From Candidatus Dormiibacterota bacterium (GTDB lineage: Bacteria; Chloroflexota; Dormibacteria; Aeolococcales; Aeolococcaceae), in the NCBI GenBank assembly GCA_035652335.1, contig DASRDZ010000013.1, forward strand, positions 6,154-70,153: a stretch of DNA of 64,000 nt, written 5' to 3'. The position numbers and the translations under genes are program-made. The notes below the pieces were generated by a model that had not been told where the DNA came from, searched no databases, and was given only the letters and a program-made list of their open reading frames with translations. Below, piece after piece: positions 1,925 through 40,338 of the stretch. Every line of letters begins with the position of its first letter. Within the stretch, counting starts at the first letter, position 1.

Positions 1925-3058
1925 ATGACGGCGCTGGCGGTACCGGCACGGACCGGCTCGAAGGCCTGGTTCCGCGCCACCCATCGCGCCTGCGCTCCCG
2001 ACGACACCTGGTCACGCCTCGCCCCGCTGCTGCGCCACGCCGGCATCACCCGCGTCGCCGACGTCACCCGCCTCGACGACGTCGGCATCCCCTGCGCGCA
2101 GGCGGTGCGCCCGCAGTCGCAGAGCCTGGCGGTGACCGTCGCCGCCGGGGTGACGCCACAGCTGGCCCGGGTCGGCGCCGCCATGGCCGCGCTGGAGCTG
2201 TGGCACGCCGAACAGCTCCCGCAGCCGCCGCGCTGGGCCTCGCTCGGCGAAGTTCGTGCCAGCCTTGGCTACAACCCGGACGGCCTGGCGCTGCACGCGC
2301 CCAACCTGCTCAACGACGGCATGGTGCTCGACTGGGTGGCCGCCACCGTCCTCGCCACCGGCCGCACCACCCTGGTGCCGCGCGCCCTCGTCGAGCACGA
2401 CCTGCGCGTCCGCGAGGAGTGGGCGCCGCCCGTGTTCCTGCAGAGCCGCGACGGCCTGGCCGCCGGCAACACCCACGCCGAGGCGGTCCTGCACGGCCTC
2501 CTGGAGGTGGTCGGACGGGACTGCGTCGCCCGCGCCCACGCCGCCGGCGCCGCCCCACGCCTCGACGCCGCCAGCGTCGACGCCGACGACGCCCGGCACA
2601 TGCTCGACCGCCTCGCCGCCGCGGGCCTGCGCACCGTGATCCACGACGTCACCGGGCCCACCGAGGTGGCCGCGTTCGAGGTGACCCTGCTGGCCCCGGA
2701 CATGCCGCCGGTGCGCGCCGCCGCGTGCCACCTCGACCGCGAGGTCGCCCTCTGCCGCGCGCTCTGCGCCGCGGCACGCGAGCGCCTGGCCCGCATCACC
2801 GGCGCCCGGGACGACCTGCCCCTCGATCCCGACGCCGCGTGCATGCCCGGGCTGCAGGACGCCCCCGCGGTGCGCGCCTGGCGCGACGTCCCCACCGTGG
2901 TCAGCTCGACCTTCGCCGGCGACGTCGCCGAGGTGGCGGACCGGGTGCGGCGCAGCGGAGCGGGGCCGGTGCTGGTCGTCGACCTCTCCCGCGCCGACGT
3001 CGGCCTGCCCGTGGCGCGGGTGATCGTGCCCGGCCTGGTCGGCACGGGCATCGCCTGA
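1925..3058 (+). CDS. ycaO: YcaO-domain protein (ATP-dependent cyclodehydratase/thioamidation family, TfuA-associated type)
   Basis: Frame of ORF 1838..3058. ATG 1925 has RBS GAGGGGG 6 nt upstream. Hallmark N-terminal YcaO block 'GITRVADVTRLDDVGIPCAQAVRPQSQSLAVTVAAGVTPQLARVGAAMAALELW'. Stop TGA 3056-3058 overlaps the next gene's ATG. Confidence 0.85.
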   Translation: MTALAVPARTGSKAWFRATHRACAPDDTWSRLAPLLRHAGITRVADVTRLDDVGIPCAQAVRPQSQSLAVTVAAGVTPQLARVGAAMAALELWHAEQLPQPPRWASLGEVRASLGYNPDGLALHAPNLLNDGMVLDWVAATVLATGRTTLVPRALVEHDLRVREEWAPPVFLQSRDGLAAGNTHAEAVLHGLLEVVGRDCVARAHAAGAAPRLDAASVDADDARHMLDRLAAAGLRTVIHDVTGPTEVAAFEVTLLAPDMPPVRAAACHLDREVALCRALCAAARERLARITGARDDLPLDPDAACMPGLQDAPAVRAWRDVPTVVSSTFAGDVAEVADRVRRSGAGPVLVVDLSRADVGLPVARVIVPGLVGTGIA

Positions 3059-4641
3059 TGCCCGCCCGCATCCACGTCTTCAGCGGGCCGACGCTGACCG
3101 GCGGCGACGTCCGCGGGGTGCTGCCCGAGGCGGTGCTCCACCCCCCCGTCGCCGCCGGCGACCTGGTCGGGCTGCCCGCCGTGCCCGGTGACACCGTGGT
3201 GCTCATCGACGGCCTGATGGACCGCGGCCGGGCGGTCCGTCACAAGGAGATCCTCGGGCTGCTCGACGCCGGGGTGGAGGTCTGGGGCGCCGGCGCCCTG
3301 GGCGCGCTCCGCGCCGCCGAGCTGCACACCGCGGGGATGCGCGCCTACGGGCGGGTCGCCCGCCTGGCCATCCGCGGCGTTCTCGGCGCCGACGACGAGG
3401 TCGCCGTCGAGCACGACGGTCCCGACGGCCGCTGGTCGGCCCGCGGCGTCGCCCTCGTCGACGTGCGCGCCACCTGCCGCAGCGCCTGCCGCCGCGGGCT
3501 GATCGACCCCGAGACCGCCGACCGGCTGGTCGCCGTGGCCCGCGCCCTGCCGCACCGGCAGCGGCGCTGGGAGGAGATCCTCGGCCGCGCCGTCGAGGGC
3601 GGCCTCGACGCCGAGATGGCGTGGCGGGTCGAGCAGCTCGCCGGCGCGGGCACCGTGCGGCTCACCCGCATCGACGCGCTCGGCTGCCTGCAGGCAGTGC
3701 GGCGCCGCAGCGGCGCGCCGCCGCGCCCGCGGTCGGGGCGCCTGGTCCGGCCGGGAACCACGGCGTACGCGCAGCGCTGGGCGGTGGAGCGCTCCGGCAG
3801 CGTCGAGCACGGCGCGGGGTTCGTCTCCGGCCTGGCGGTGCTCACCTTCTGCCGCCTGCTGGGCGTCGACTATCCGGCCCTGCAGCGGCGCGTCGCCCTG
3901 CGCACCCTGGCCGCCGCGGCGCTGCCCCCGGCCCGTCCCGCCGAGCGCGAGGGGCAGGCGATGGTCCGCGAGTTCGCCGACGAGCGGCGGCTCGACCCCG
4001 GGTCGCTGGTGCTCTGGCTCACCGAGCGCGGGCTGCGGCGCGAGGAGCTGCTCGCCCATCTTCGCCGGGAGGCCGCGGTGCGTGAGTTCCTGTCGTCTCG
4101 CGGCGTGCACCCCGGCGACGAGGCGGGGACCGAGTCGGCCCTTGCCGGCGTGGTCGCCGAACACGCCCGCCGCCGCGGGTTCGTGGCCACGCGCGCGGCG
4201 CGTGGCTGGGAGCGGGCCTGGCTGTCGGCGGGGGAGCTGGAGAGCCTGGGAGCGGACGAGCGCATCGCCCGTCTCGCCGCGCGCAGCTTCCTCTGCGCGC
4301 CGGGCGTCGACTGGCGCGGGCCGCTGCTCCAGGAGCTGAAGGTGCGCGGCGTGGCCCGCGTCGCCCGGGAGGGGGTCGCCGAGGCGCTGCAGCGCTGGCG
4401 CGACGTCCAGGCGGCCGACCCGGCGCTGGCCGCCGACTGCTCCGACGCGGAGCAGATCGTGGCCTGGGCGGCGCAGCGGTGGAGCGCTCCCGAGCGGCTC
4501 GACCTGGCGCTGCTCGACCGGGGGCTGCGCAGCCGCGAGGAGCTGGTGGCGGCGGCGCCGATGTACGTCGCCCTCGACCGCTCGGTCGACACCTACCGGG
4601 ACCTGCACTGCCTGGGCAGGGCGCTGTCATCGGCGCGCTGA
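3058..4641 (+). CDS. tfuA: TfuA-like protein with a long C-terminal extension (~528 aa total)
   Basis: ATG 3058 shares a base with the ycaO stop (TGATG coupling). N-terminus 'MPARIHVFSGPTLTGGDVRGVLPEAVLHPPVAAGDL...VLIDGLMDRGRAVRHKEIL...GAGALGALRAAEL' matches the TfuA domain. The frame then stays open with GC3-rich, protein-like codons for ~330 more aa of unknown domain. Confidence 0.75.
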   Translation: MPARIHVFSGPTLTGGDVRGVLPEAVLHPPVAAGDLVGLPAVPGDTVVLIDGLMDRGRAVRHKEILGLLDAGVEVWGAGALGALRAAELHTAGMRAYGRVARLAIRGVLGADDEVAVEHDGPDGRWSARGVALVDVRATCRSACRRGLIDPETADRLVAVARALPHRQRRWEEILGRAVEGGLDAEMAWRVEQLAGAGTVRLTRIDALGCLQAVRRRSGAPPRPRSGRLVRPGTTAYAQRWAVERSGSVEHGAGFVSGLAVLTFCRLLGVDYPALQRRVALRTLAAAALPPARPAEREGQAMVREFADERRLDPGSLVLWLTERGLRREELLAHLRREAAVREFLSSRGVHPGDEAGTESALAGVVAEHARRRGFVATRAARGWERAWLSAGELESLGADERIARLAARSFLCAPGVDWRGPLLQELKVRGVARVAREGVAEALQRWRDVQAADPALAADCSDAEQIVAWAAQRWSAPERLDLALLDRGLRSREELVAAAPMYVALDRSVDTYRDLHCLGRALSSAR

Positions 4642-4803: not shown

Positions 4804-7170
4804 GTGGTCCTCGTCGCCACCGTCGTGGGCGCGATCCTCGTGCTCGGCGCGGCGTTCCTCCTGCTCCGTCCCGGCGTGCTGAGCCGCGCCGCCAGCCGCC
4901 GTCGAATGGCCGCGCTGCCCGGGCAGGTCACCCGCATGGGGGTGCAGGACAACCTGGGCCAGGTGCTCGACCTGATGATCCGGGCCATGGACCGCCCAGG
5001 ATTGCGCGGCGGCGCCATCTTCCTGATCAACGAGCGCAACGAGCTCTACTTCGGGGCCCATCGCGGCTTCGTCGACGCGGAGGTGCGCGACCTGCGCCTG
5101 CCGGTGGGGCAGGGGGTGGTGGGCAGGGTGGCCGCCGAGGCCACCCCGGTGATCGTCGACGACCTCGACGCGCCCCCGGCCGGGGTCACGCTGACCAACC
5201 GGTCGGTCGGGAGCAACTCGCTGACGCGCAGCCTGATCGCCGTCCCGGTGGTGCTGGCCGGCGGGGTCATCGGCGTGCTGGAGATGGGCTGCACCCGCCC
5301 GCGCGCCTTCGACCAGCTCGACCTCGGCGTGCTGCAGAAGGTAGCCGCCTCGGTCGCCGACTCGATCGCCCAGGCCAACCCGCTGAAGCTCGCCGACGAG
5401 GTGCTCAGCCGCCGCGTCCGCGAGCTGACCAGCCTGCAGGAGGCCGCGGAGTCGCTCAACGCCTCGCTGGGGCTCGACGTGGTCCTGCGCGCGGTGGCCG
5501 ACCACGCGGCGCGCCTGCTCCACGCGCCCTACGCGGCGGTGCTCGACGTCGAGGGCGGCGTGGTGCGCAGCGCGGCGGTGCACGACGTCGACGCGCGCGT
5601 CGACACCGCGCCGGTGCTGTCGGCGGTGGCCGACTGGCTGGGCGGCCCCGACGCCGAGGCGGGACAGACCCATGCCGAGGTGCTTCCCGAGCCGCCCGAG
5701 GGCGGGCCGCCGGTCACCGACCCGCTGGCGCCGCTGCGCAGCCTGGCCATGGTGCGGCTGCAGCCGGCCACCGGCTTCGACGCCGTGCTCTGCGCCGCCT
5801 CGCCCGACCCGCGCGGCTTCGACCCGGCGCAGATGCGGCTGCTCGACGGCATCAGCCACCTGGCCAACCTGGCCATCGCCAACGCGGTGCGCTACCGGCG
5901 CCTCACCGAGGCCGCCGTCACCGACCCGCTCACCGGGCTGCTGCGGCGCTCCGAGTTCGAGCGCATCCTGGCCGAAACTCGCGGCCAGACGGTGAGCGTG
6001 CTGGCCATCGACGTCGACCATCTCAAGGACGTCAACGACGCGGGCGGGCACGAGGCCGGCGACGCCCTGCTGCAGGCCATCGCCACCACGCTGCGCCGGC
6101 GCCTCGGCGACCTCCGCACCCTGGCCCGCACCGGTGGCGACGAGTTCGCCGTGCTGCTGCCCGGCTTCGAGTCGGGCACCGCCGTGGCGGTGGCCGAGGA
6201 GCTGCGCCGCTCGGCGCACGAGGCGCCGGTGACCGAGTGGCTGCCGCGGATCAGCATCGGGCTCGGCTCGGTCGCCGCCGACGGCGATCCCCGCGCCGCC
6301 TGGGACGCCGCCATCGAGGCACTGCACCTGGCCAAGCGCTGGGGGCGCGACCGCGTCGAGACCCTGGCCGTGCAGGCACGGCTGGGGGAGCGCCGCCACA
6401 CCTGGGACGAGCTGGTGCCCCAGCTCTTCGAGGAGGGGCGCATCGAGACGGTCTACCAGCCCATCGTCCGCCTCGCCGACCGCCACCTGGTCGGCTACGA
6501 GGCGCTGGCGCGCCCGCGCGGCTTCCCCGCCGACGCCGACGTCGAGGGCCTCTTCGCCGCCGCCCGCGACGCCGGCCTGCACCGCGACCTCGACTGGGCC
6601 TGCCGGCGCGCCGCGGTGCGCCGCGCCGGCGAGCTGAGCGGCGGCGTGCCGCTCTTCCTCAACGTCGGCGTCTGGGCGCTCATCGACCCCCTCCACGACG
6701 TCGACCAGATGCTCCTCCTGCTGCGCTGGACGGGCATCTCGCCGGGCGACATGGTCCTGGAGCTGAGCGAGCGCGAGGCGGTGCACGACCTCGACCGCCT
6801 CCGCGCGGTGATGGCCGCCTACCGCGCCCACGGCTTCCGCTTCTCCATCGACGACGTCGGCGAGGGCCATTCCACCCTCGACATGCTCGCCGCCGGCGCA
6901 CCCGACTACATCAAGATCGCCCGCAGCCTGGTATCGTCCGCGGACCATCCGGGGGCGCGCGCCGCCATCAACGCGGTGGTCGCCTTCGGCAGGTCGGCGT
7001 CCTCCACGGTGGTCGCCGAAGGTGTGCAGACCGCCGAGGAGGCGGCGCGGATGGAGGCCATGGGCGTGTCGCTTGGGCAGGGGTACTGGCTGGGGCCGCC
7101 GCTGCGGCTCGACCCGCCGGACGAGCCCGAGGGCAACGTGCTCGGCCGCTCCGCCGCCGTCGCCGTTTGA
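4804..7170 (+). CDS. Membrane-anchored GAF–GAF–GGDEF–EAL signalling protein (diguanylate cyclase/phosphodiesterase)
   Basis: ORF 4804..7170 with a GTG start. N-terminal TM helix, two GAF-like regions, an intact 'GGDEF', and EAL motifs 'YQPIV…EALAR', 'DDVGEG', 'EGVQTAEE'. Confidence 0.85.
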   Translation: MVLVATVVGAILVLGAAFLLLRPGVLSRAASRRRMAALPGQVTRMGVQDNLGQVLDLMIRAMDRPGLRGGAIFLINERNELYFGAHRGFVDAEVRDLRLPVGQGVVGRVAAEATPVIVDDLDAPPAGVTLTNRSVGSNSLTRSLIAVPVVLAGGVIGVLEMGCTRPRAFDQLDLGVLQKVAASVADSIAQANPLKLADEVLSRRVRELTSLQEAAESLNASLGLDVVLRAVADHAARLLHAPYAAVLDVEGGVVRSAAVHDVDARVDTAPVLSAVADWLGGPDAEAGQTHAEVLPEPPEGGPPVTDPLAPLRSLAMVRLQPATGFDAVLCAASPDPRGFDPAQMRLLDGISHLANLAIANAVRYRRLTEAAVTDPLTGLLRRSEFERILAETRGQTVSVLAIDVDHLKDVNDAGGHEAGDALLQAIATTLRRRLGDLRTLARTGGDEFAVLLPGFESGTAVAVAEELRRSAHEAPVTEWLPRISIGLGSVAADGDPRAAWDAAIEALHLAKRWGRDRVETLAVQARLGERRHTWDELVPQLFEEGRIETVYQPIVRLADRHLVGYEALARPRGFPADADVEGLFAAARDAGLHRDLDWACRRAAVRRAGELSGGVPLFLNVGVWALIDPLHDVDQMLLLLRWTGISPGDMVLELSEREAVHDLDRLRAVMAAYRAHGFRFSIDDVGEGHSTLDMLAAGAPDYIKIARSLVSSADHPGARAAINAVVAFGRSASSTVVAEGVQTAEEAARMEAMGVSLGQGYWLGPPLRLDPPDEPEGNVLGRSAAVAV

Positions 7171-33770: not shown

Positions 33771-35294
33771 GTGCAAAGGGCAGAGGCGATGGACGTCGCC
33801 GCGATCGGTCAACCCCAAGCGCGTCCGGCCCAGCGGCCGCAATGGCGGGCTTTCGAGCGCCTGCGCGCAGCGTTCGCGGAGGACATCGTCCGCGCGGCGC
33901 CGGTGACCTACACCCCTGAGCTGGTCGCCTATGTCGGCCTGACCAACCTGGTGGCCATCGGCGTTGGGGTCGCCACGGTGCGCACCTCGACCGACCCGGC
34001 CGGCACCGCCATCCTGGCGAGCGCCATCGCGCTCATGGCCGTGTTCAACATCCGCTTCCTCTCGACGGTCAACACGCTGTTCAGCGCGACGACCTTCATG
34101 CACCTGGGCCTGGCGCTCGGCGTCGGCCCCGTCGGAGCTCTCGCCGGGGCGGTGAGCGAGAGCGTGGCTGTGCTGTTCCGCTATCGGACCGGCCTGTTCC
34201 GCACCGCATTCAACGTCCCCTTGGTGTTCCTCGCGAACGTGTCAGCCTGGGGAACCTACGTCGTCTTCGCGCGGCTTCCGGTGCATGGAGCGCTCTACGC
34301 GGGACTTACCGGCATCGCCACCGGGTTCGTCCACTGGGCGGTGAACTACTTCATGCTCAGCGGGATCGTCACGGTCGCGGCGCACCGCCCCTACTGGCGC
34401 CAGATCCGCGAGGCGCTGGTGGTCGCCCCGTACCACCTCTGCTATGGGTACGCAGCCATTGGCTTCGTGGCCCTGCACGACCACTTCGGCGCCATGGGAT
34501 TCACCTTCGCCATGGCTCCCGTGGCCGCCCTGCAGGCCTTCCTGGTCGTTCTGTCCCGGCGCACACGCCAGCACGAGACCGAGCGCGATCAGCTCCTCGG
34601 ACAGCTGCAGGAGGAGAGCATTCGGGTCGAGCGCTCGTACGATGCAACGCTGATCGCGCTGACCCACGCGCTGGACGCGCGCGACAAGGAGACCGAGGGC
34701 CACTCCCGCCGGGTCGTGGAGTACACGAAGCTGATCGCGGTGCAGCTCGGCATCGAGGGCGAGAAGCTCAAGCTCCTCTGCCACGGCGCCCTTCTGCACG
34801 ACATCGGCAAGATCGGTGTGCCCGACGCCATCCTGCACAAGCCGGGCCCGCTCACCGAGGCCGAGTGGCAGGTGATGCGCCGGCACCCGGAGATCGGGGC
34901 GCTCATGGTCGAGGAGGTCGAGTACCTCGCCGAGGCGCGGCGGATCATCCTCCACCACCACGAGCGTTGGGACGGCCGCGGCTATCCGCTCGGCCTGCGG
35001 GGCCCGCAGATCAGCCAGGGTGCCCGCGCCTTCGCCATCGCGGACACCATCGACGCCATCACCCAGGACCGCCCCTACCGGCGGGGCCGTTCGCTCGACG
35101 AGGCGCGGGAGGAGATCCTCCGCCACCGGGGCACCCAGTTCGACCCCGACGCCGTGGATGCGTTCCTCTCCCTCCGAGAGGCGGACCTGATCAACGTCGC
35201 GGCCATCCGGGCCAGGGTTGCGCTCGACCTCCTGGTCGGGAACAGCTCGGTCCAGCGTGCTCCCGTCGCGGCAGGGGTGCCAGCGCCGGCCTGA
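33771..35294 (+). CDS. Membrane-associated HD-GYP domain c-di-GMP phosphodiesterase
   Basis: ORF 33771..35294. The start may be ATG 33789, which has RBS GGCAGAGG. Multi-TM N-terminus and 'LLHDIGKIGVPD…HHERWDGRGYP'. Confidence 0.8.
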   Translation: MQRAEAMDVAAIGQPQARPAQRPQWRAFERLRAAFAEDIVRAAPVTYTPELVAYVGLTNLVAIGVGVATVRTSTDPAGTAILASAIALMAVFNIRFLSTVNTLFSATTFMHLGLALGVGPVGALAGAVSESVAVLFRYRTGLFRTAFNVPLVFLANVSAWGTYVVFARLPVHGALYAGLTGIATGFVHWAVNYFMLSGIVTVAAHRPYWRQIREALVVAPYHLCYGYAAIGFVALHDHFGAMGFTFAMAPVAALQAFLVVLSRRTRQHETERDQLLGQLQEESIRVERSYDATLIALTHALDARDKETEGHSRRVVEYTKLIAVQLGIEGEKLKLLCHGALLHDIGKIGVPDAILHKPGPLTEAEWQVMRRHPEIGALMVEEVEYLAEARRIILHHHERWDGRGYPLGLRGPQISQGARAFAIADTIDAITQDRPYRRGRSLDEAREEILRHRGTQFDPDAVDAFLSLREADLINVAAIRARVALDLLVGNSSVQRAPVAAGVPAPA

Positions 35295-35421
35295 GCTCGG
35301 CTGCGGGCAACCACGGTGGGCGGGAAGGGCAGCGCGCCGGCGACAGGCTCGTGAGTCTTTACAGCCCGAGCCCGGGCGCCCGGCCGGATGTCACAGACCC
35401 ATGACGCCGAATGTTTAGCGC

Positions 35422-35451
35422 TTGACGGGAAGTCATGTGGCCCGTTACTGT
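35422..35451 (+). promoter_or_regulatory. Putative sigma-A promoter TTGACG-N18-TACTGT
   Basis: TTGACG 35422-35427 and TACTGT 35446-35451. The same hexamer pair occurs upstream of mraZ (40503/40526). Confidence 0.3.
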
Positions 35452-35597
35452 TGCGCCACGAACGCAACGGGGCCGTGACCAGGAGGTGACGGCCGAGTAG
35501 CACAAACCGGAGTGGGCGCTCCGGAGTGCCGGACCCCGATGTTGCAGCATCGGGCCGGCGACGACGAAATCTGCCCCAAAAGGAGGTGTAACAGTCC

Positions 35598-35639
35598 ATG
35601 GCTACCTGGACGGGCCACGAAGTGGGTACCTGGGGCTAG
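35598..35639 (+). CDS. Upstream leader ORF, 13 codons (MATWTGHEVGTWG)
   Basis: Strong RBS AAAGGAGGTG 9 nt upstream of the ATG. It is preceded by a ~140-nt leader with four hairpins and followed by a terminator-like structure. Confidence 0.35.
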   Translation: MATWTGHEVGTWG

Positions 35640-35692
35640 TTCGTCGGCACTGGGTGCCCGGCAAAGGTATCCGGTCGACATGACGCCCAAGT

Positions 35693-35750
35693 GGCGCAGG
35701 TGTCGCGGGGTGGTGACATCCCCCGACTTCTGCGCCACTTCCTTTTTCCT
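35693..35750 (+). terminator. Candidate intrinsic terminator/attenuator between the leader ORF and the MFS gene
   Basis: GGCGCAG…(inner CGGGG/CCCCG hairpin)…CTGCGCC followed by ACTTCCTTTTTCC. Confidence 0.35.
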
Positions 35751-35862
35751 GAGCTTCACCCGACCATGGCGGAGTGCCCGATTGGCCACGACAGTCCCCC
35801 CAACCCGCACAATTCCTCCAGGACAGGCCGTGGGAGCCGCGGCAGCGGGCAGCTTCCACGAG

Positions 35863-37107
35863 GTGAAGGTGGTGGAGCAGGACATCGTCGCCGCGACGCT
35901 CGTGACGGCCCAGGGTCCGGTCACCGAGCGTGGCTGGGGCGGCCAGGGCTCGCGGTTCGCGCGCTACATCACCGCCACCTGGCTCTCCCTGTACGGAGAC
36001 TGGTTCAGCACCGTGGCCCTGGTGGTGCTGCTGTACCGCCTGAGCGGGCCGGCCGCGCCCGCTGGCTACATGCTCGCGCGCGTCCTGCCACGCCTGCTCA
36101 GCGCCAACATCGGTGGGAACCTCGCAGATCGCCTCAAGCCGCAGCACGTGGTCGCTGGGTGCGCCGCAATCCAGGCGCTCTTCACCCTGTCGATCGTGCT
36201 CTCGGCGCGCATACAGGCCACGTGGGCCATCTACGGCGCAGTGGCGATCGCTCAGTTCGCCGGCGGTGTCTCCCGGCCTGCGTCCGCGTCCCTCATCCCC
36301 CGGGTGGCGCCGCCGGGCAAGCTGCAGAGGGCCAATGCCCTGTACACGCTGGGGTTCTCGTCGAGCGTCGCGGTCGCTCCGGCCATCGCCGGCCCGCTCC
36401 TCCCGGCGATCGGCGCCGAGGCGCTGCTCATCATCGACACCCTGACCTTCGCGGTTGCCTCTTTCCTCATGTTGACGTTGCGAGTCCGTGGTGCTGGGGC
36501 GTGGGCACCTCCGGCAGAAGGGGCCGTCTCGGGTCTGCGCGCGGTGTGGCGCGACCCTGTCCTCAGGGTGATCGCCGCCGCCTGGGCATGCAGCGCCATC
36601 GCTGCCACGGCGGGTGGCGCGGTGCTGGTGCTCGTGGCCGGGTCGCTGGGCGACGCCTCCGCGGTGGGGTACCTGTATGCCGCCATGGGCGGCTGCGCAG
36701 TGCTGGTCGGGTTCGTGATGCTGCTCCGGCGCACCGCCTTCGTCGGACGCGACGTCATCGTGGGATTCGCCGTGCTCGAAGTGGTCGGCCTCGCCCTCCT
36801 TACCCTGCACGGCGGCTACGCCACGACATACCTCGCCCTCGCCGTCACCGGCGGGAGCGCCGTCGTGTGGCAGACGCTCGCCCTGACGGACGTCCATCTG
36901 CGCGCCGACCCGGCCCGCATGGGGCGGGTGAACGCTGTGATCGTGCAGTCGATGACGGCGGGGATGCTGGTCGGGGCACTGCTGGCGCTGGCCCTGGTGC
37001 CGTGGGCCGGCTGGGAGCACGCCCTCTTCATCGCCTGCTGCGTCTCCCTCCTCGTCCTCGCCGCCGGCGTGGTCCTCGGCCCGAAGCGCCGCAGCACGCC
37101 TGACTGA
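35863..37107 (+). CDS. MFS transporter
   Basis: 3' part of ORF 35512..37107. Start among GTG 35863, 35869 and 35872 (GAGGTG RBS). 12 TM segments. Confidence 0.7.
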   Translation: MKVVEQDIVAATLVTAQGPVTERGWGGQGSRFARYITATWLSLYGDWFSTVALVVLLYRLSGPAAPAGYMLARVLPRLLSANIGGNLADRLKPQHVVAGCAAIQALFTLSIVLSARIQATWAIYGAVAIAQFAGGVSRPASASLIPRVAPPGKLQRANALYTLGFSSSVAVAPAIAGPLLPAIGAEALLIIDTLTFAVASFLMLTLRVRGAGAWAPPAEGAVSGLRAVWRDPVLRVIAAAWACSAIAATAGGAVLVLVAGSLGDASAVGYLYAAMGGCAVLVGFVMLLRRTAFVGRDVIVGFAVLEVVGLALLTLHGGYATTYLALAVTGGSAVVWQTLALTDVHLRADPARMGRVNAVIVQSMTAGMLVGALLALALVPWAGWEHALFIACCVSLLVLAAGVVLGPKRRSTPD

Positions 37108-37147: not shown

Positions 37148-38191
37148 ATGACCGACGGGGACACGCTGCTTCGCGACGCGCTCGACCGCGTCGTGCGCGG
37201 TGGGGACCTCGACATCGACACCGCCCGGGCGGTGATGGACCGGATCATGGAGGGGGCGGCGACCCCGGCCCAGATCGGGGCGCTGCTGGCGGCACTGCGC
37301 ACCAAGGGCGAGACGGTCGACGAGATGGCGGGGATGGTGCAGTCGATGCGGGAGCACGCCACCCAGGTCGACCTCGGCGGCCTGCAGGCGGTGGACACGT
37401 GCGGCACCGGCGGCGACGGCTCCGGCACCTTCAACATCTCCACCGCGGCGGCGCTGGTGGTGGCGGGCGCGGGGTGCCCGGTCGCGAAGCACGGCAACCG
37501 GGCGCAGTCGAGCCGATGCGGCAGTGCCGACGTCCTGGAGGCGCTGGGGGTGGCCATTGCGCTGAGCCCCGACGGCGTGCGCCGCTGCGTCGAGGAGGCG
37601 GGCATCGGCTTCCTCTTCGCGCAATCGTTCCACCCGGCGATGCGCCACGCGGCGGGGGTGCGGCGCGAGCTGGGCATCCGCACCGCGTTCAACGTGCTCG
37701 GCCCGCTCGCCAACCCGGCCGGGGTGCGCCACCAGTCGCTGGGCGTCGGCGACGCCGGCCTCGCCCTCACCATGGCCAGGGTGCTGCACCGCCTCGGCCA
37801 TCGCCGCGCCATCGTCTTCGCCGGTCCGCACGGGATCGACGAGCTGGGCCTCGCCGGCACCGCGCAGTGCCATGAGGTCACTCCCGACGGCATCCGCGAC
37901 TTCACCCTCGACCCCCAGGAGCTCGACATCGCCGCCGCGCCGCTGGAGGCGCTCCGCGGTGGCGACGCCGAGGACAACGCGCAGCGCATCCGCCGCGTCC
38001 TCGGCGGCGAGCCGGGCCCGGCGCTCGACGTGGTCATCCTGAACGCGGCCGCCGCGCTGGTCGCAGCCGAGCGGGCGCCCGACTTCGGCGAGGGGCTGGA
38101 GCAGGCGCGTGCCTCGATCGCCTCGGGTTCGGCGAGGCGCAGCCTCGACAGCCTGGTCCGCGTCTCCCAGCAGGCGGCCGCCGCCGCATGA
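37148..38191 (+). CDS. trpD: Anthranilate phosphoribosyltransferase
   Basis: ORF 37148..38191. 'DTCGTGGDGSGTFNISTAAALVVAGAG…KHGNRA'. Confidence 0.9.
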   Translation: MTDGDTLLRDALDRVVRGGDLDIDTARAVMDRIMEGAATPAQIGALLAALRTKGETVDEMAGMVQSMREHATQVDLGGLQAVDTCGTGGDGSGTFNISTAAALVVAGAGCPVAKHGNRAQSSRCGSADVLEALGVAIALSPDGVRRCVEEAGIGFLFAQSFHPAMRHAAGVRRELGIRTAFNVLGPLANPAGVRHQSLGVGDAGLALTMARVLHRLGHRRAIVFAGPHGIDELGLAGTAQCHEVTPDGIRDFTLDPQELDIAAAPLEALRGGDAEDNAQRIRRVLGGEPGPALDVVILNAAAALVAAERAPDFGEGLEQARASIASGSARRSLDSLVRVSQQAAAAA

Positions 38192-39931: not shown

Positions 39932-40338
39932 GAGTGCAAGCCGGCCTGTAAGCCGGGTTCTGTCCCCACCGCGAACGGTGGGGGACGGCCATCCATCTGG
40001 GACGCCGGTTGCCCGGCGCCTCGAGCGGCCAGACCCGGGACCCGGGGCGAGCAACCCCTGGACCGCCGCGATCGCTCGCGGCTGCGTCCGTCCCTGTTCG
40101 GCCTTGCTCCGGACGGGGTTTACCTGGCCGGCCGGTCACCCGGCCGCCGGTGGGCTCTTACCCCACCATTTCACCGTCGCCCGTGCCCGCGCGGAGGCGG
40201 GCCGTCGGCTGTGTCTTTCTGTGGCACTCTCCTTCGGGTCACCCCGACTGGGTGTTACCCAGCGCCCTGCTCTGTGGAGCCCGGACTTTCCTCGAGCGGC
40301 GCGTACGTCCGCCCGCGGCCGTCCGGCCGGCTTGCACG
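39932..40338 (-). ncRNA. rnpB: RNase P RNA, bacterial type A (rnpB)
   Basis: The minus-strand transcript carries GGAAAGUCCGGGCUCC (rc of 40276-40291), GGUGAAAUGGUGGGGUAAGAGCCCACC, AGGUAAACCCC, CAGAUGGAUGGC and ACAGAACCCGGCUUA (rc of 39949-39963). The P1 helix is GCAAGCCGGCC/GGCCGGCUUGC. The spurious ORFs 39894-40460 lie on top of it. Confidence 0.85.

Follow-up and report, generated by a model that had tools for sequence, protein, structure and literature searches.

The agr and com pheromone cassettes of Gram-positive bacteria group the gene for a small peptide with genes for an exporter and for a polytopic-membrane receptor kinase and response regulator, often in divergent orientation; each peptide is released from a longer precursor, AgrB or ABC systems carry out the export, and the response regulators bind DNA. 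Upstream of the macrolide efflux genes mef(E)/mel, a 327-nt 5' region contains four stem-loops, a terminator and the ORF for an 8-aa leader peptide; this attenuator, mef(E)L, combines a defined anti-attenuator structure with the drug-arrest motif MTASMRLR (PMC4335068). In the microcin C (mcc) operon, the 7-codon gene mccA is followed by a terminator and then by biosynthesis and major facilitator superfamily (MFS) export genes; mccA yields an abundant short transcript and the operon a minor read-through transcript, with upstream sequences weakening the terminator until a ribosome binds (PMC4231749). The product of trpL, the 14-aa Trp leader peptide peTrpL, has an additional role in trans (bioRxiv 10.1101/606483), so that there is precedent for leader peptides with independent functions. 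Here we analyse a locus with partial likeness to all of these: a 13-codon open reading frame (ORF) upstream of an MFS transporter gene in a 64,000-nt stretch of DNA from a Candidatus Dormiibacterota bacterium (GenBank assembly GCA_035652335.1, contig DASRDZ010000013.1, forward-strand positions 6,154 to 70,153; hereafter the window, numbered from its first letter).

The locus shares with mef(E)L a promoter, a stem-loop 5' region, a short ORF preceded by a Shine–Dalgarno (SD) sequence, a Rho-independent terminator and an MFS efflux gene, but it differs in that no antiterminator was found among 11 orthologous sequences, its peptide bears no relation to that of mef(E)L, and its ORF is one of a phylum-wide family tied to a membrane sensor. 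Like mccA, the ORF is tiny and has an intrinsic terminator just downstream and an MFS exporter gene; unlike mccA, it has no linked gene for an MccB-like adenylating enzyme (its neighbours encode HD-GYP, trpD, trmK and others), and its C-terminal residue is variable where that of mccA is Asn. The terminator-weakening upstream sequences of the mcc operon were not found here. With trpL and peTrpL it has in common a Trp-containing peptide of 10–14 residues on a short terminated leader RNA; trpL, however, has consecutive Trp codons and a 1:2/2:3/3:4 attenuator before trp genes, whereas the small ORF studied here has separated Trp codons, lacks a 2:3 element and is partnered with an MFS gene. The likeness to pheromone cassettes holds at the level of gene linkage only: peptide gene, exporter and polytopic membrane receptor are clustered, but the ORF encodes the whole peptide, the transporter is of the MFS, and the outputs are HD-GYP, GGDEF-EAL or CheY-like REC.

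A layout that resembles that of a leader peptide can conceal a true micro-protein gene. The Dormibacterota, bacteria abundant in soil, are represented here by metagenome-assembled genomes (MAGs) only, and we know of no genetic system for them. A gene of 10–14 codons is too short for the gene calls in their records, yet this one is conserved phylum-wide, and together with its transporter and a rare sensor it offers an entry point to Dormibacterota regulation or cell-to-cell signalling.

Evidence for a translated and selected peptide

Variation within the small ORF indicates that it is translated and that the peptide itself is under selection, because codons 2–8 vary almost solely at third positions. 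Across the window and nine type-1 loci, all found independently of the ORF's DNA pattern, minor-allele counts in these codons were 1/1/19 by codon position (0/0/15 without the divergent L002); L070–L086 were left out of this test, since the DNA pattern that found them had fixed first and second codon positions. Every indel in the small ORF spans a multiple of three nucleotides, and the stop codon, be it TAG, TGA or TAA, keeps its place. No upstream extension is possible because of an in-frame TAA at 35589, and a GGAG-type SD lies 5–13 nt 5' of the start in every member of the family. In type 1A, AAGGAGGTG is invariant; of its two copies in the 64-kb window, one is within the Lon gene and that in the SD at 35579–35588 is the sole intergenic copy. 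A first-pass annotation of the window had described a 13-codon upstream ORF with a near-consensus ribosome-binding site, and both are present and conserved, with the coding signature just given.

The ORF recurs at related loci. A six-frame search found an SD-preceded ORF of 10–14 codons upstream of the MFS gene in 65 of 69 MFS-derived loci, and three of the four loci without one are truncated upstream. In an independent metagenome scan, a degenerate DNA pattern of the small ORF gave 17 hits, one of them a false positive; contig ends truncate two of the 16 true matches, and the other 14 have an MFS gene downstream. The small ORF is always 5' of the MFS gene, close to it and on the same strand.

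Four peptide types were distinguished: MATWTGHE-x3-5-W-x (that of the window, peptide ATWTGHEVGTWG), M[AG]TWD[TN]QC-x4-6-W-x, MA[TSN]WGD-x-[DE/x]-x-W(G) and a single MNSWNGSEITTSWG. The invariant features are an M-x-[TSN]-W start and a W, or W and one further residue, ahead of the stop; all 70 distinct DNA variants encode Trp at codon 4 and again in the final codon or the one before it. Across these versions the peptide cores (TGHE, D[TN]QC, GD-x-[DE]) are subtype-specific, and the core changes together with the clade of the transporter and of the sensor. The C-terminal half is hypervariable among close relatives, ending in G, S, I, V, A or N, and indels vary the distance from the conserved N-terminus to the stop. 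The different subtypes have no 5' UTR (untranslated region) sequence in common; what they share is the peptide. No known arrest motif was seen by eye in the peptides, and the family is described nowhere in the literature searched (Dormibacterota with peptide and MFS; leader peptide with MFS and Trp codons). Some MAGs have two MFS loci each: in VBHE01, L058 and L064 carry different peptide types, and in JAFARE01, L054 has the small ORF and L006 lacks it.

Gene order identifies the conserved unit as the small ORF, the MFS gene and a polytopic membrane sensor domain, which adjoins the small ORF/MFS pair in nearly all loci. The sensor outputs are HD-GYP, PAS-GGDEF-EAL, or a HisKA_3 kinase with a CheY-like REC protein, and the N-terminal ~250 residues of the HD-GYP, GGDEF-EAL and kinase proteins are one homologous domain with the motif FNVxxxFLANVxAWG. 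The domain is without a Pfam model; a full HMMER scan of 1.84 billion proteins gave 82 representatives at E ≤ 1e-3, compared with seven hits from a word-indexed homologue search. Examples lie at 33771–34640 in the window, at 2510–3409 on the minus strand of L024 and at 5357–6079 of L010.

Conserved elements around the small ORF

Table 1 Features of the small-ORF locus, in window coordinates.
Feature	Coordinates	Strand	Details
Polytopic membrane sensor domain (residues ~40–290) fused to HD-GYP	33771–35294	+	Partner of the small ORF/MFS pair
Boxes 5' of the −35 hexamer	35389–35420	+	TGTCACAG, ATGACGCC (35401–35408), GTTTAGCG; conserved in alignments
Promoter	35422–35451	+	−35 TTGACG 35422–35427, 18-nt spacer, −10 TACTGT 35446–35451
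Structured 5' UTR	35458–35597	+	Hairpins H2 35471–35494, H3 35507–35524, H4 35528–35559
Shine–Dalgarno	35579–35588	+	AAAGGAGGTG, 9 nt 5' of ATG
Micro-ORF, 13 codons	35598–35639	+	ATG 35598 to TAG 35639; encodes MATWTGHEVGTWG
Conserved structured spacer	35640–35688	+	TCGTCGG 35642–35648, inner hairpin 35650–35675, ATGACGCC 35680–35687
Intrinsic terminator	35689–35749	+	Interrupted ~22-bp stem 35689–35740, then CCTTTTTCC
Bipartite element	35784–35813	+	GGCCAC-N18-CACAAT; CGCCAY-N17-GACAAT in orthologues, read from alignment
MFS_3 / MFS_1 transporter	35869–37107	+	Pfam match; alternative called start GTG 35830
trpD (anthranilate phosphoribosyltransferase)	37148–38191	+	TIGR01245, 393.6 bits (cut-off 199)

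Both hexamers of the promoter that the first-pass annotation had placed upstream of the small ORF are in the sequence and are kept in 12 type-1A loci, the spacer between them being variable in the alignment. A strict sigma-70 scan of the window did not report this promoter and gave no other match; it misses the promoter because the −10 hexamer matches TATAAT at three of six positions, and both −10 boxes seen here (TACTGT and TACAGT) are poor TATAAT matches. Transcription would start near A35458. Further upstream, orthologues have TGTAACGG in place of the TGTCACAG box, and this sequence is an inverted partner to CCGTTAC at the −10; the region 35389–35420, conserved in alignments, is probably an operator or UP-like region. 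The octamer ATGACGCC is present twice, 5' of the −35 hexamer and again just ahead of the terminator, and both copies are conserved among type-1A loci.

The DNA from 35389 to 35747 is 75–79% identical to that of the three closest loci, whose MFS proteins are 57–60% identical, and in the same alignment conservation falls off immediately 3' of the terminator. Within the 5' UTR, the H3 loop NGGGCN and the H4 loop TTGCAG are invariant, and the plus strand of 35440–35760 has a folding z-score of −5.3 against shuffles, with −3.8 for the minus strand. The four consecutive hairpins described at first pass were reduced to three: H2, H3 and H4 lie in the leader, whereas the first (35450–35468) is probably for the most part not in the RNA, because it overlaps the −10 box and the likely start.

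The transporter assignment made at first pass was borne out by the Pfam match. The best NCBIfam match is TIGR00900 ('H+ Antiporter protein') at 91.9 bits, under its cut-off of 319.6, with a weak match to EntS, and the named homologues come mostly from Candidatus Dormibacterota MAGs. Gene callers start the protein at GTG 35830 and, in orthologues, at a non-conserved upstream ATG; a conserved SD, GAGGTG (35860–35865), and the onset of protein conservation (VEPEVV) favour GTG 35869 or 35872, suggesting that the start was probably mis-called. The conserved bipartite element between the terminator and the MFS gene is possibly a weak or alternative-sigma (non-canonical) MFS promoter. In some orthologues an ATG overlaps the element, but this codon is missing from the window and from L061 and so is no conserved start. 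No sigma-70-type promoter was found between the terminator and the MFS gene in subtype 1A, and the MFS gene may therefore depend on read-through in that subtype.

Terminator and the search for an antiterminator

The terminator-like hairpin noted at first pass proved strong and conserved: its stem has a predicted energy of −39.5 kcal/mol in the window and −36 to −43 kcal/mol in 11 orthologues, with three pairs showing compensatory changes and a T-rich tail in all of them. RNAalifold, applied to 11 type-1A sequences, supports H2, H4, the inner hairpin of the spacer and the terminator. Compensatory changes affect seven pairs in total, with one pair each in H2 and H4 and two in the inner hairpin (H3 is invariant), and 95.6% of cells are paired, compared with 35–48% with slid partners; this support for pairing is moderate, since the structure was derived from the same alignment.

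The first-pass annotation had read the layout as ribosome-mediated attenuation and had proposed folding of alternative antiterminator pairings as a check. We masked a ribosome footprint at the start codon, at W4, or at the last W or stop, and refolded each of the 11 sequences; the terminator kept a pairing probability of 0.84–1.0 under every mask in 11/11 sequences, a result of thermodynamic modelling only. In duplex searches, the best upstream partners of either terminator strand fell at inconsistent positions among orthologues, and neither these searches nor constrained folding found a conserved antiterminator in the 11 type-1A orthologues. A classical ribosome-position switch between terminator and antiterminator was therefore rejected as not supported by these models, given that the masks leave the terminator folded and alternative partners are not positionally conserved. 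What stands of the attenuator reading is its layout (promoter, structured leader, translated ORF, terminator and MFS gene), which is conserved; a terminator/antiterminator pair flipped by stalling was not found, though kinetic or protein-mediated control could still operate. An alternative pairing of TCGTCG in the spacer with upstream CGACGA or downstream ATGACG was also considered and rejected: it is possible, but shows no covariation and leaves the terminator untouched.

Interpretation

The interpretation we favour, with somewhat less than even confidence, is that a micro-peptide gene at the locus stands on its own and is highly expressed, that its terminator restricts read-through into the MFS gene, and that its peptide is a ligand or cargo of the MFS transporter and the sensor. 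Positions 35422–35749 would constitute this small gene, its conserved promoter driving an RNA of ~290 nt on which stable 5' hairpins and a near-perfect SD would support heavy translation of the 13-residue peptide. The strong intrinsic terminator would end most transcripts, while a small read-through fraction would supply, at least partly, the MFS_3 transporter and perhaps trpD. By analogy with mccA, a promoter, 5' hairpins, SD and terminator of this kind would be expected to give an abundant short mRNA. The functional product would be the peptide, in which two fixed tryptophans bracket a short polar core with metal-ligand-type residues; it would most likely serve as cargo or ligand of the MFS transporter and as signal for the polytopic sensor, which at the window's locus would control an HD-GYP phosphodiesterase of cyclic di-GMP (c-di-GMP). 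A functional peptide fits the family better than a ribosome sensor does, because the core varies with clade, the C-terminus is hypervariable and the distance from N-terminus to stop is not constant.

Several points weigh against a micro-peptide gene. Both the expression and the peptide are predicted from sequence alone, and no modifying enzyme or processing signal is linked to the small ORF; MFS export of an unmodified hydrophilic 12-mer would be unusual. Between the small ORF and the MFS gene, every subtype has 50–250 nt of RNA that is both conserved and structured, which suggests cis regulation that the micro-gene model leaves unexplained. The lack of a clear separate MFS promoter in subtype 1A fits a leader equally well, and leader-type arrest peptides can also show conservation at the amino-acid level.

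The most serious alternative, possible though in our view rather unlikely, is a cis-acting leader peptide, with drug- or metabolite-dependent arrest altering terminator read-through, mRNA stability or MFS translation. The nascent chain would begin with MA[TSN]W and end in [NST]-W-(G)-stop, both of them conserved, the ORF has the size typical of leaders and the constant upstream, same-strand position expected of one, and the window's subtype places a real terminator between ORF and MFS gene, the same layout as in the mef(E) leader (PMC4335068). In type 2, as read from the alignment, the MFS SD and GTG lie within conserved hairpins. Yet there is no conserved antiterminator among the 11 orthologues, in which masked footprints leave the terminator unaffected; indels that alter the length from N-terminus to stop are awkward for precise contact with the exit tunnel; and variation of the core with transporter and sensor clade is hard to explain if the ribosome does the sensing. 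Subtype 1B adds a further difficulty for a leader and a point in favour of the micro-gene: there, the small ORF is followed first by a terminator-like hairpin and next by a sigma-70-like promoter, TTGGCA-17-GATACT, ahead of the downstream genes, and would therefore form a transcription unit by itself. This promoter was found by a sigma-70 scan, and its hexamers are conserved around a variable spacer. If the peptide were nevertheless a cis-acting sensor, it would represent a new class of arrest peptide without a recognisable antiterminator.

Returning to the micro-peptide gene, a further proposal, which we regard as doubtful, is that it serves phylum-specific signalling: an unprocessed peptide of 10–14 residues would be exported by the MFS transporter and sensed by the new domain, which would pass the signal to c-di-GMP turnover or a phosphorelay. 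The subtype-specific cores would then act as separate channels, and some might bind metals.

We consider it improbable that the RNA rather than the peptide is the functional product, whether as a new riboswitch or protein-binding element, perhaps with a link to c-di-GMP, or as a dual-function small RNA of ~290 nt. Loops and linkers in type 1A are invariant beyond structural need (GCACAAACCGGAG-NGGGCN-CTCCGG and GATGTTGCAGCATC), the folding z-score is low, and HD-GYP or GGDEF-EAL genes adjoin; the subtypes, however, lack a common 5' UTR sequence while sharing the peptide, and translation of the ORF is evident from its coding signature. Nor did Rfam families match the small-ORF region (window positions 34800–36400, E ≤ 10), where the best scores were 13.8–21 bits against gathering scores of 34–162, and at gathering score a scan of the entire window, together with 12 loci in which all four peptide types are represented, returned RNase P only. 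The first-pass annotation had matched no known riboswitch class. An Ms1- or 6S-like RNA was rejected, since Ms1 scored 13.8 bits against a gathering score of 162 and the HAD-IB hydrolase of Ms1 synteny (PMC9130861) is absent.

Equally improbable is a Trp-starvation attenuator, in which a shortage of charged tRNA-Trp would hold up ribosomes at the two UGG codons and so raise read-through into the MFS gene and trpD. The fixed Trp codons would suit such a device, as would trpD, which begins 40 nt after the MFS stop in the window's lineage and is possibly co-transcribed with the MFS gene, and trpS, which lies near type-2 loci. However, the Trp codons are single and far apart, and a stall at codon 4 would keep ribosomes from the second; the residues beside Trp are conserved as amino acids; and, as above, the type-1A sequences yielded no antiterminator. 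Only one lineage, in which housekeeping synteny is conserved, has trpD next to the MFS gene; no trp genes lie near type-3 loci; and in type 2 an opposite-strand DoxX gene and others separate trpS from the MFS gene, placing it in another operon. A link to a Trp regulon was therefore rejected, and Trp-dependent stalling, suggested at first pass, is unlikely as a general function.

Gene neighbourhoods of the subtypes

In subtype 1A, the 5' side carries genes for Lon, an ABC transporter, lactamase_B, NUDIX and alpha/beta hydrolase proteins and the sensor-HD-GYP protein, and then the small ORF; on the 3' side are MFS, trpD, trmK, CT398-like and RNase H genes, RNase P RNA, and mraZ with the cell-division cluster. 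The RNase P class A RNA of the window (39933–40334, minus strand, 246 bits) occupies the same conserved position in L001, L003 and L061. In subtype 1B, the small ORF comes after genes for a molybdopterin oxidoreductase and cytochrome b561 and before those for a REC-domain protein, the MFS transporter and a PAS-GGDEF-EAL protein. The REC protein (2954–3955 in L010; 2902–3993 in L064) has an uncharacterised C-terminal region of ~140 residues, and its true start probably lies further downstream, because the called start overlaps the predicted promoter.

Types 2 and 3 have genes for a HisKA_3 histidine kinase and a CheY-like REC protein divergent from the small ORF/MFS pair, and many type-3 loci have two tandem MFS genes. 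In type 2, trpS is accompanied by a second gene for a class-I W/Y tRNA synthetase (5643–7010 in L011; 11119–12126 and 12661–13797 in L090), and these synthetase genes lie a few kb 3' of the MFS gene, beside DoxX, dodecin and alpha/beta hydrolase genes. In type-3 loci (L042, L056, L068, L024 and others), a palindrome, GTCTTAAGAC, lies ~100–150 nt 5' of the small ORF; it reads GTCTTAAGCC in many of these loci, overlaps the −35 region of the small-ORF promoters and looks like a transcription-factor operator.

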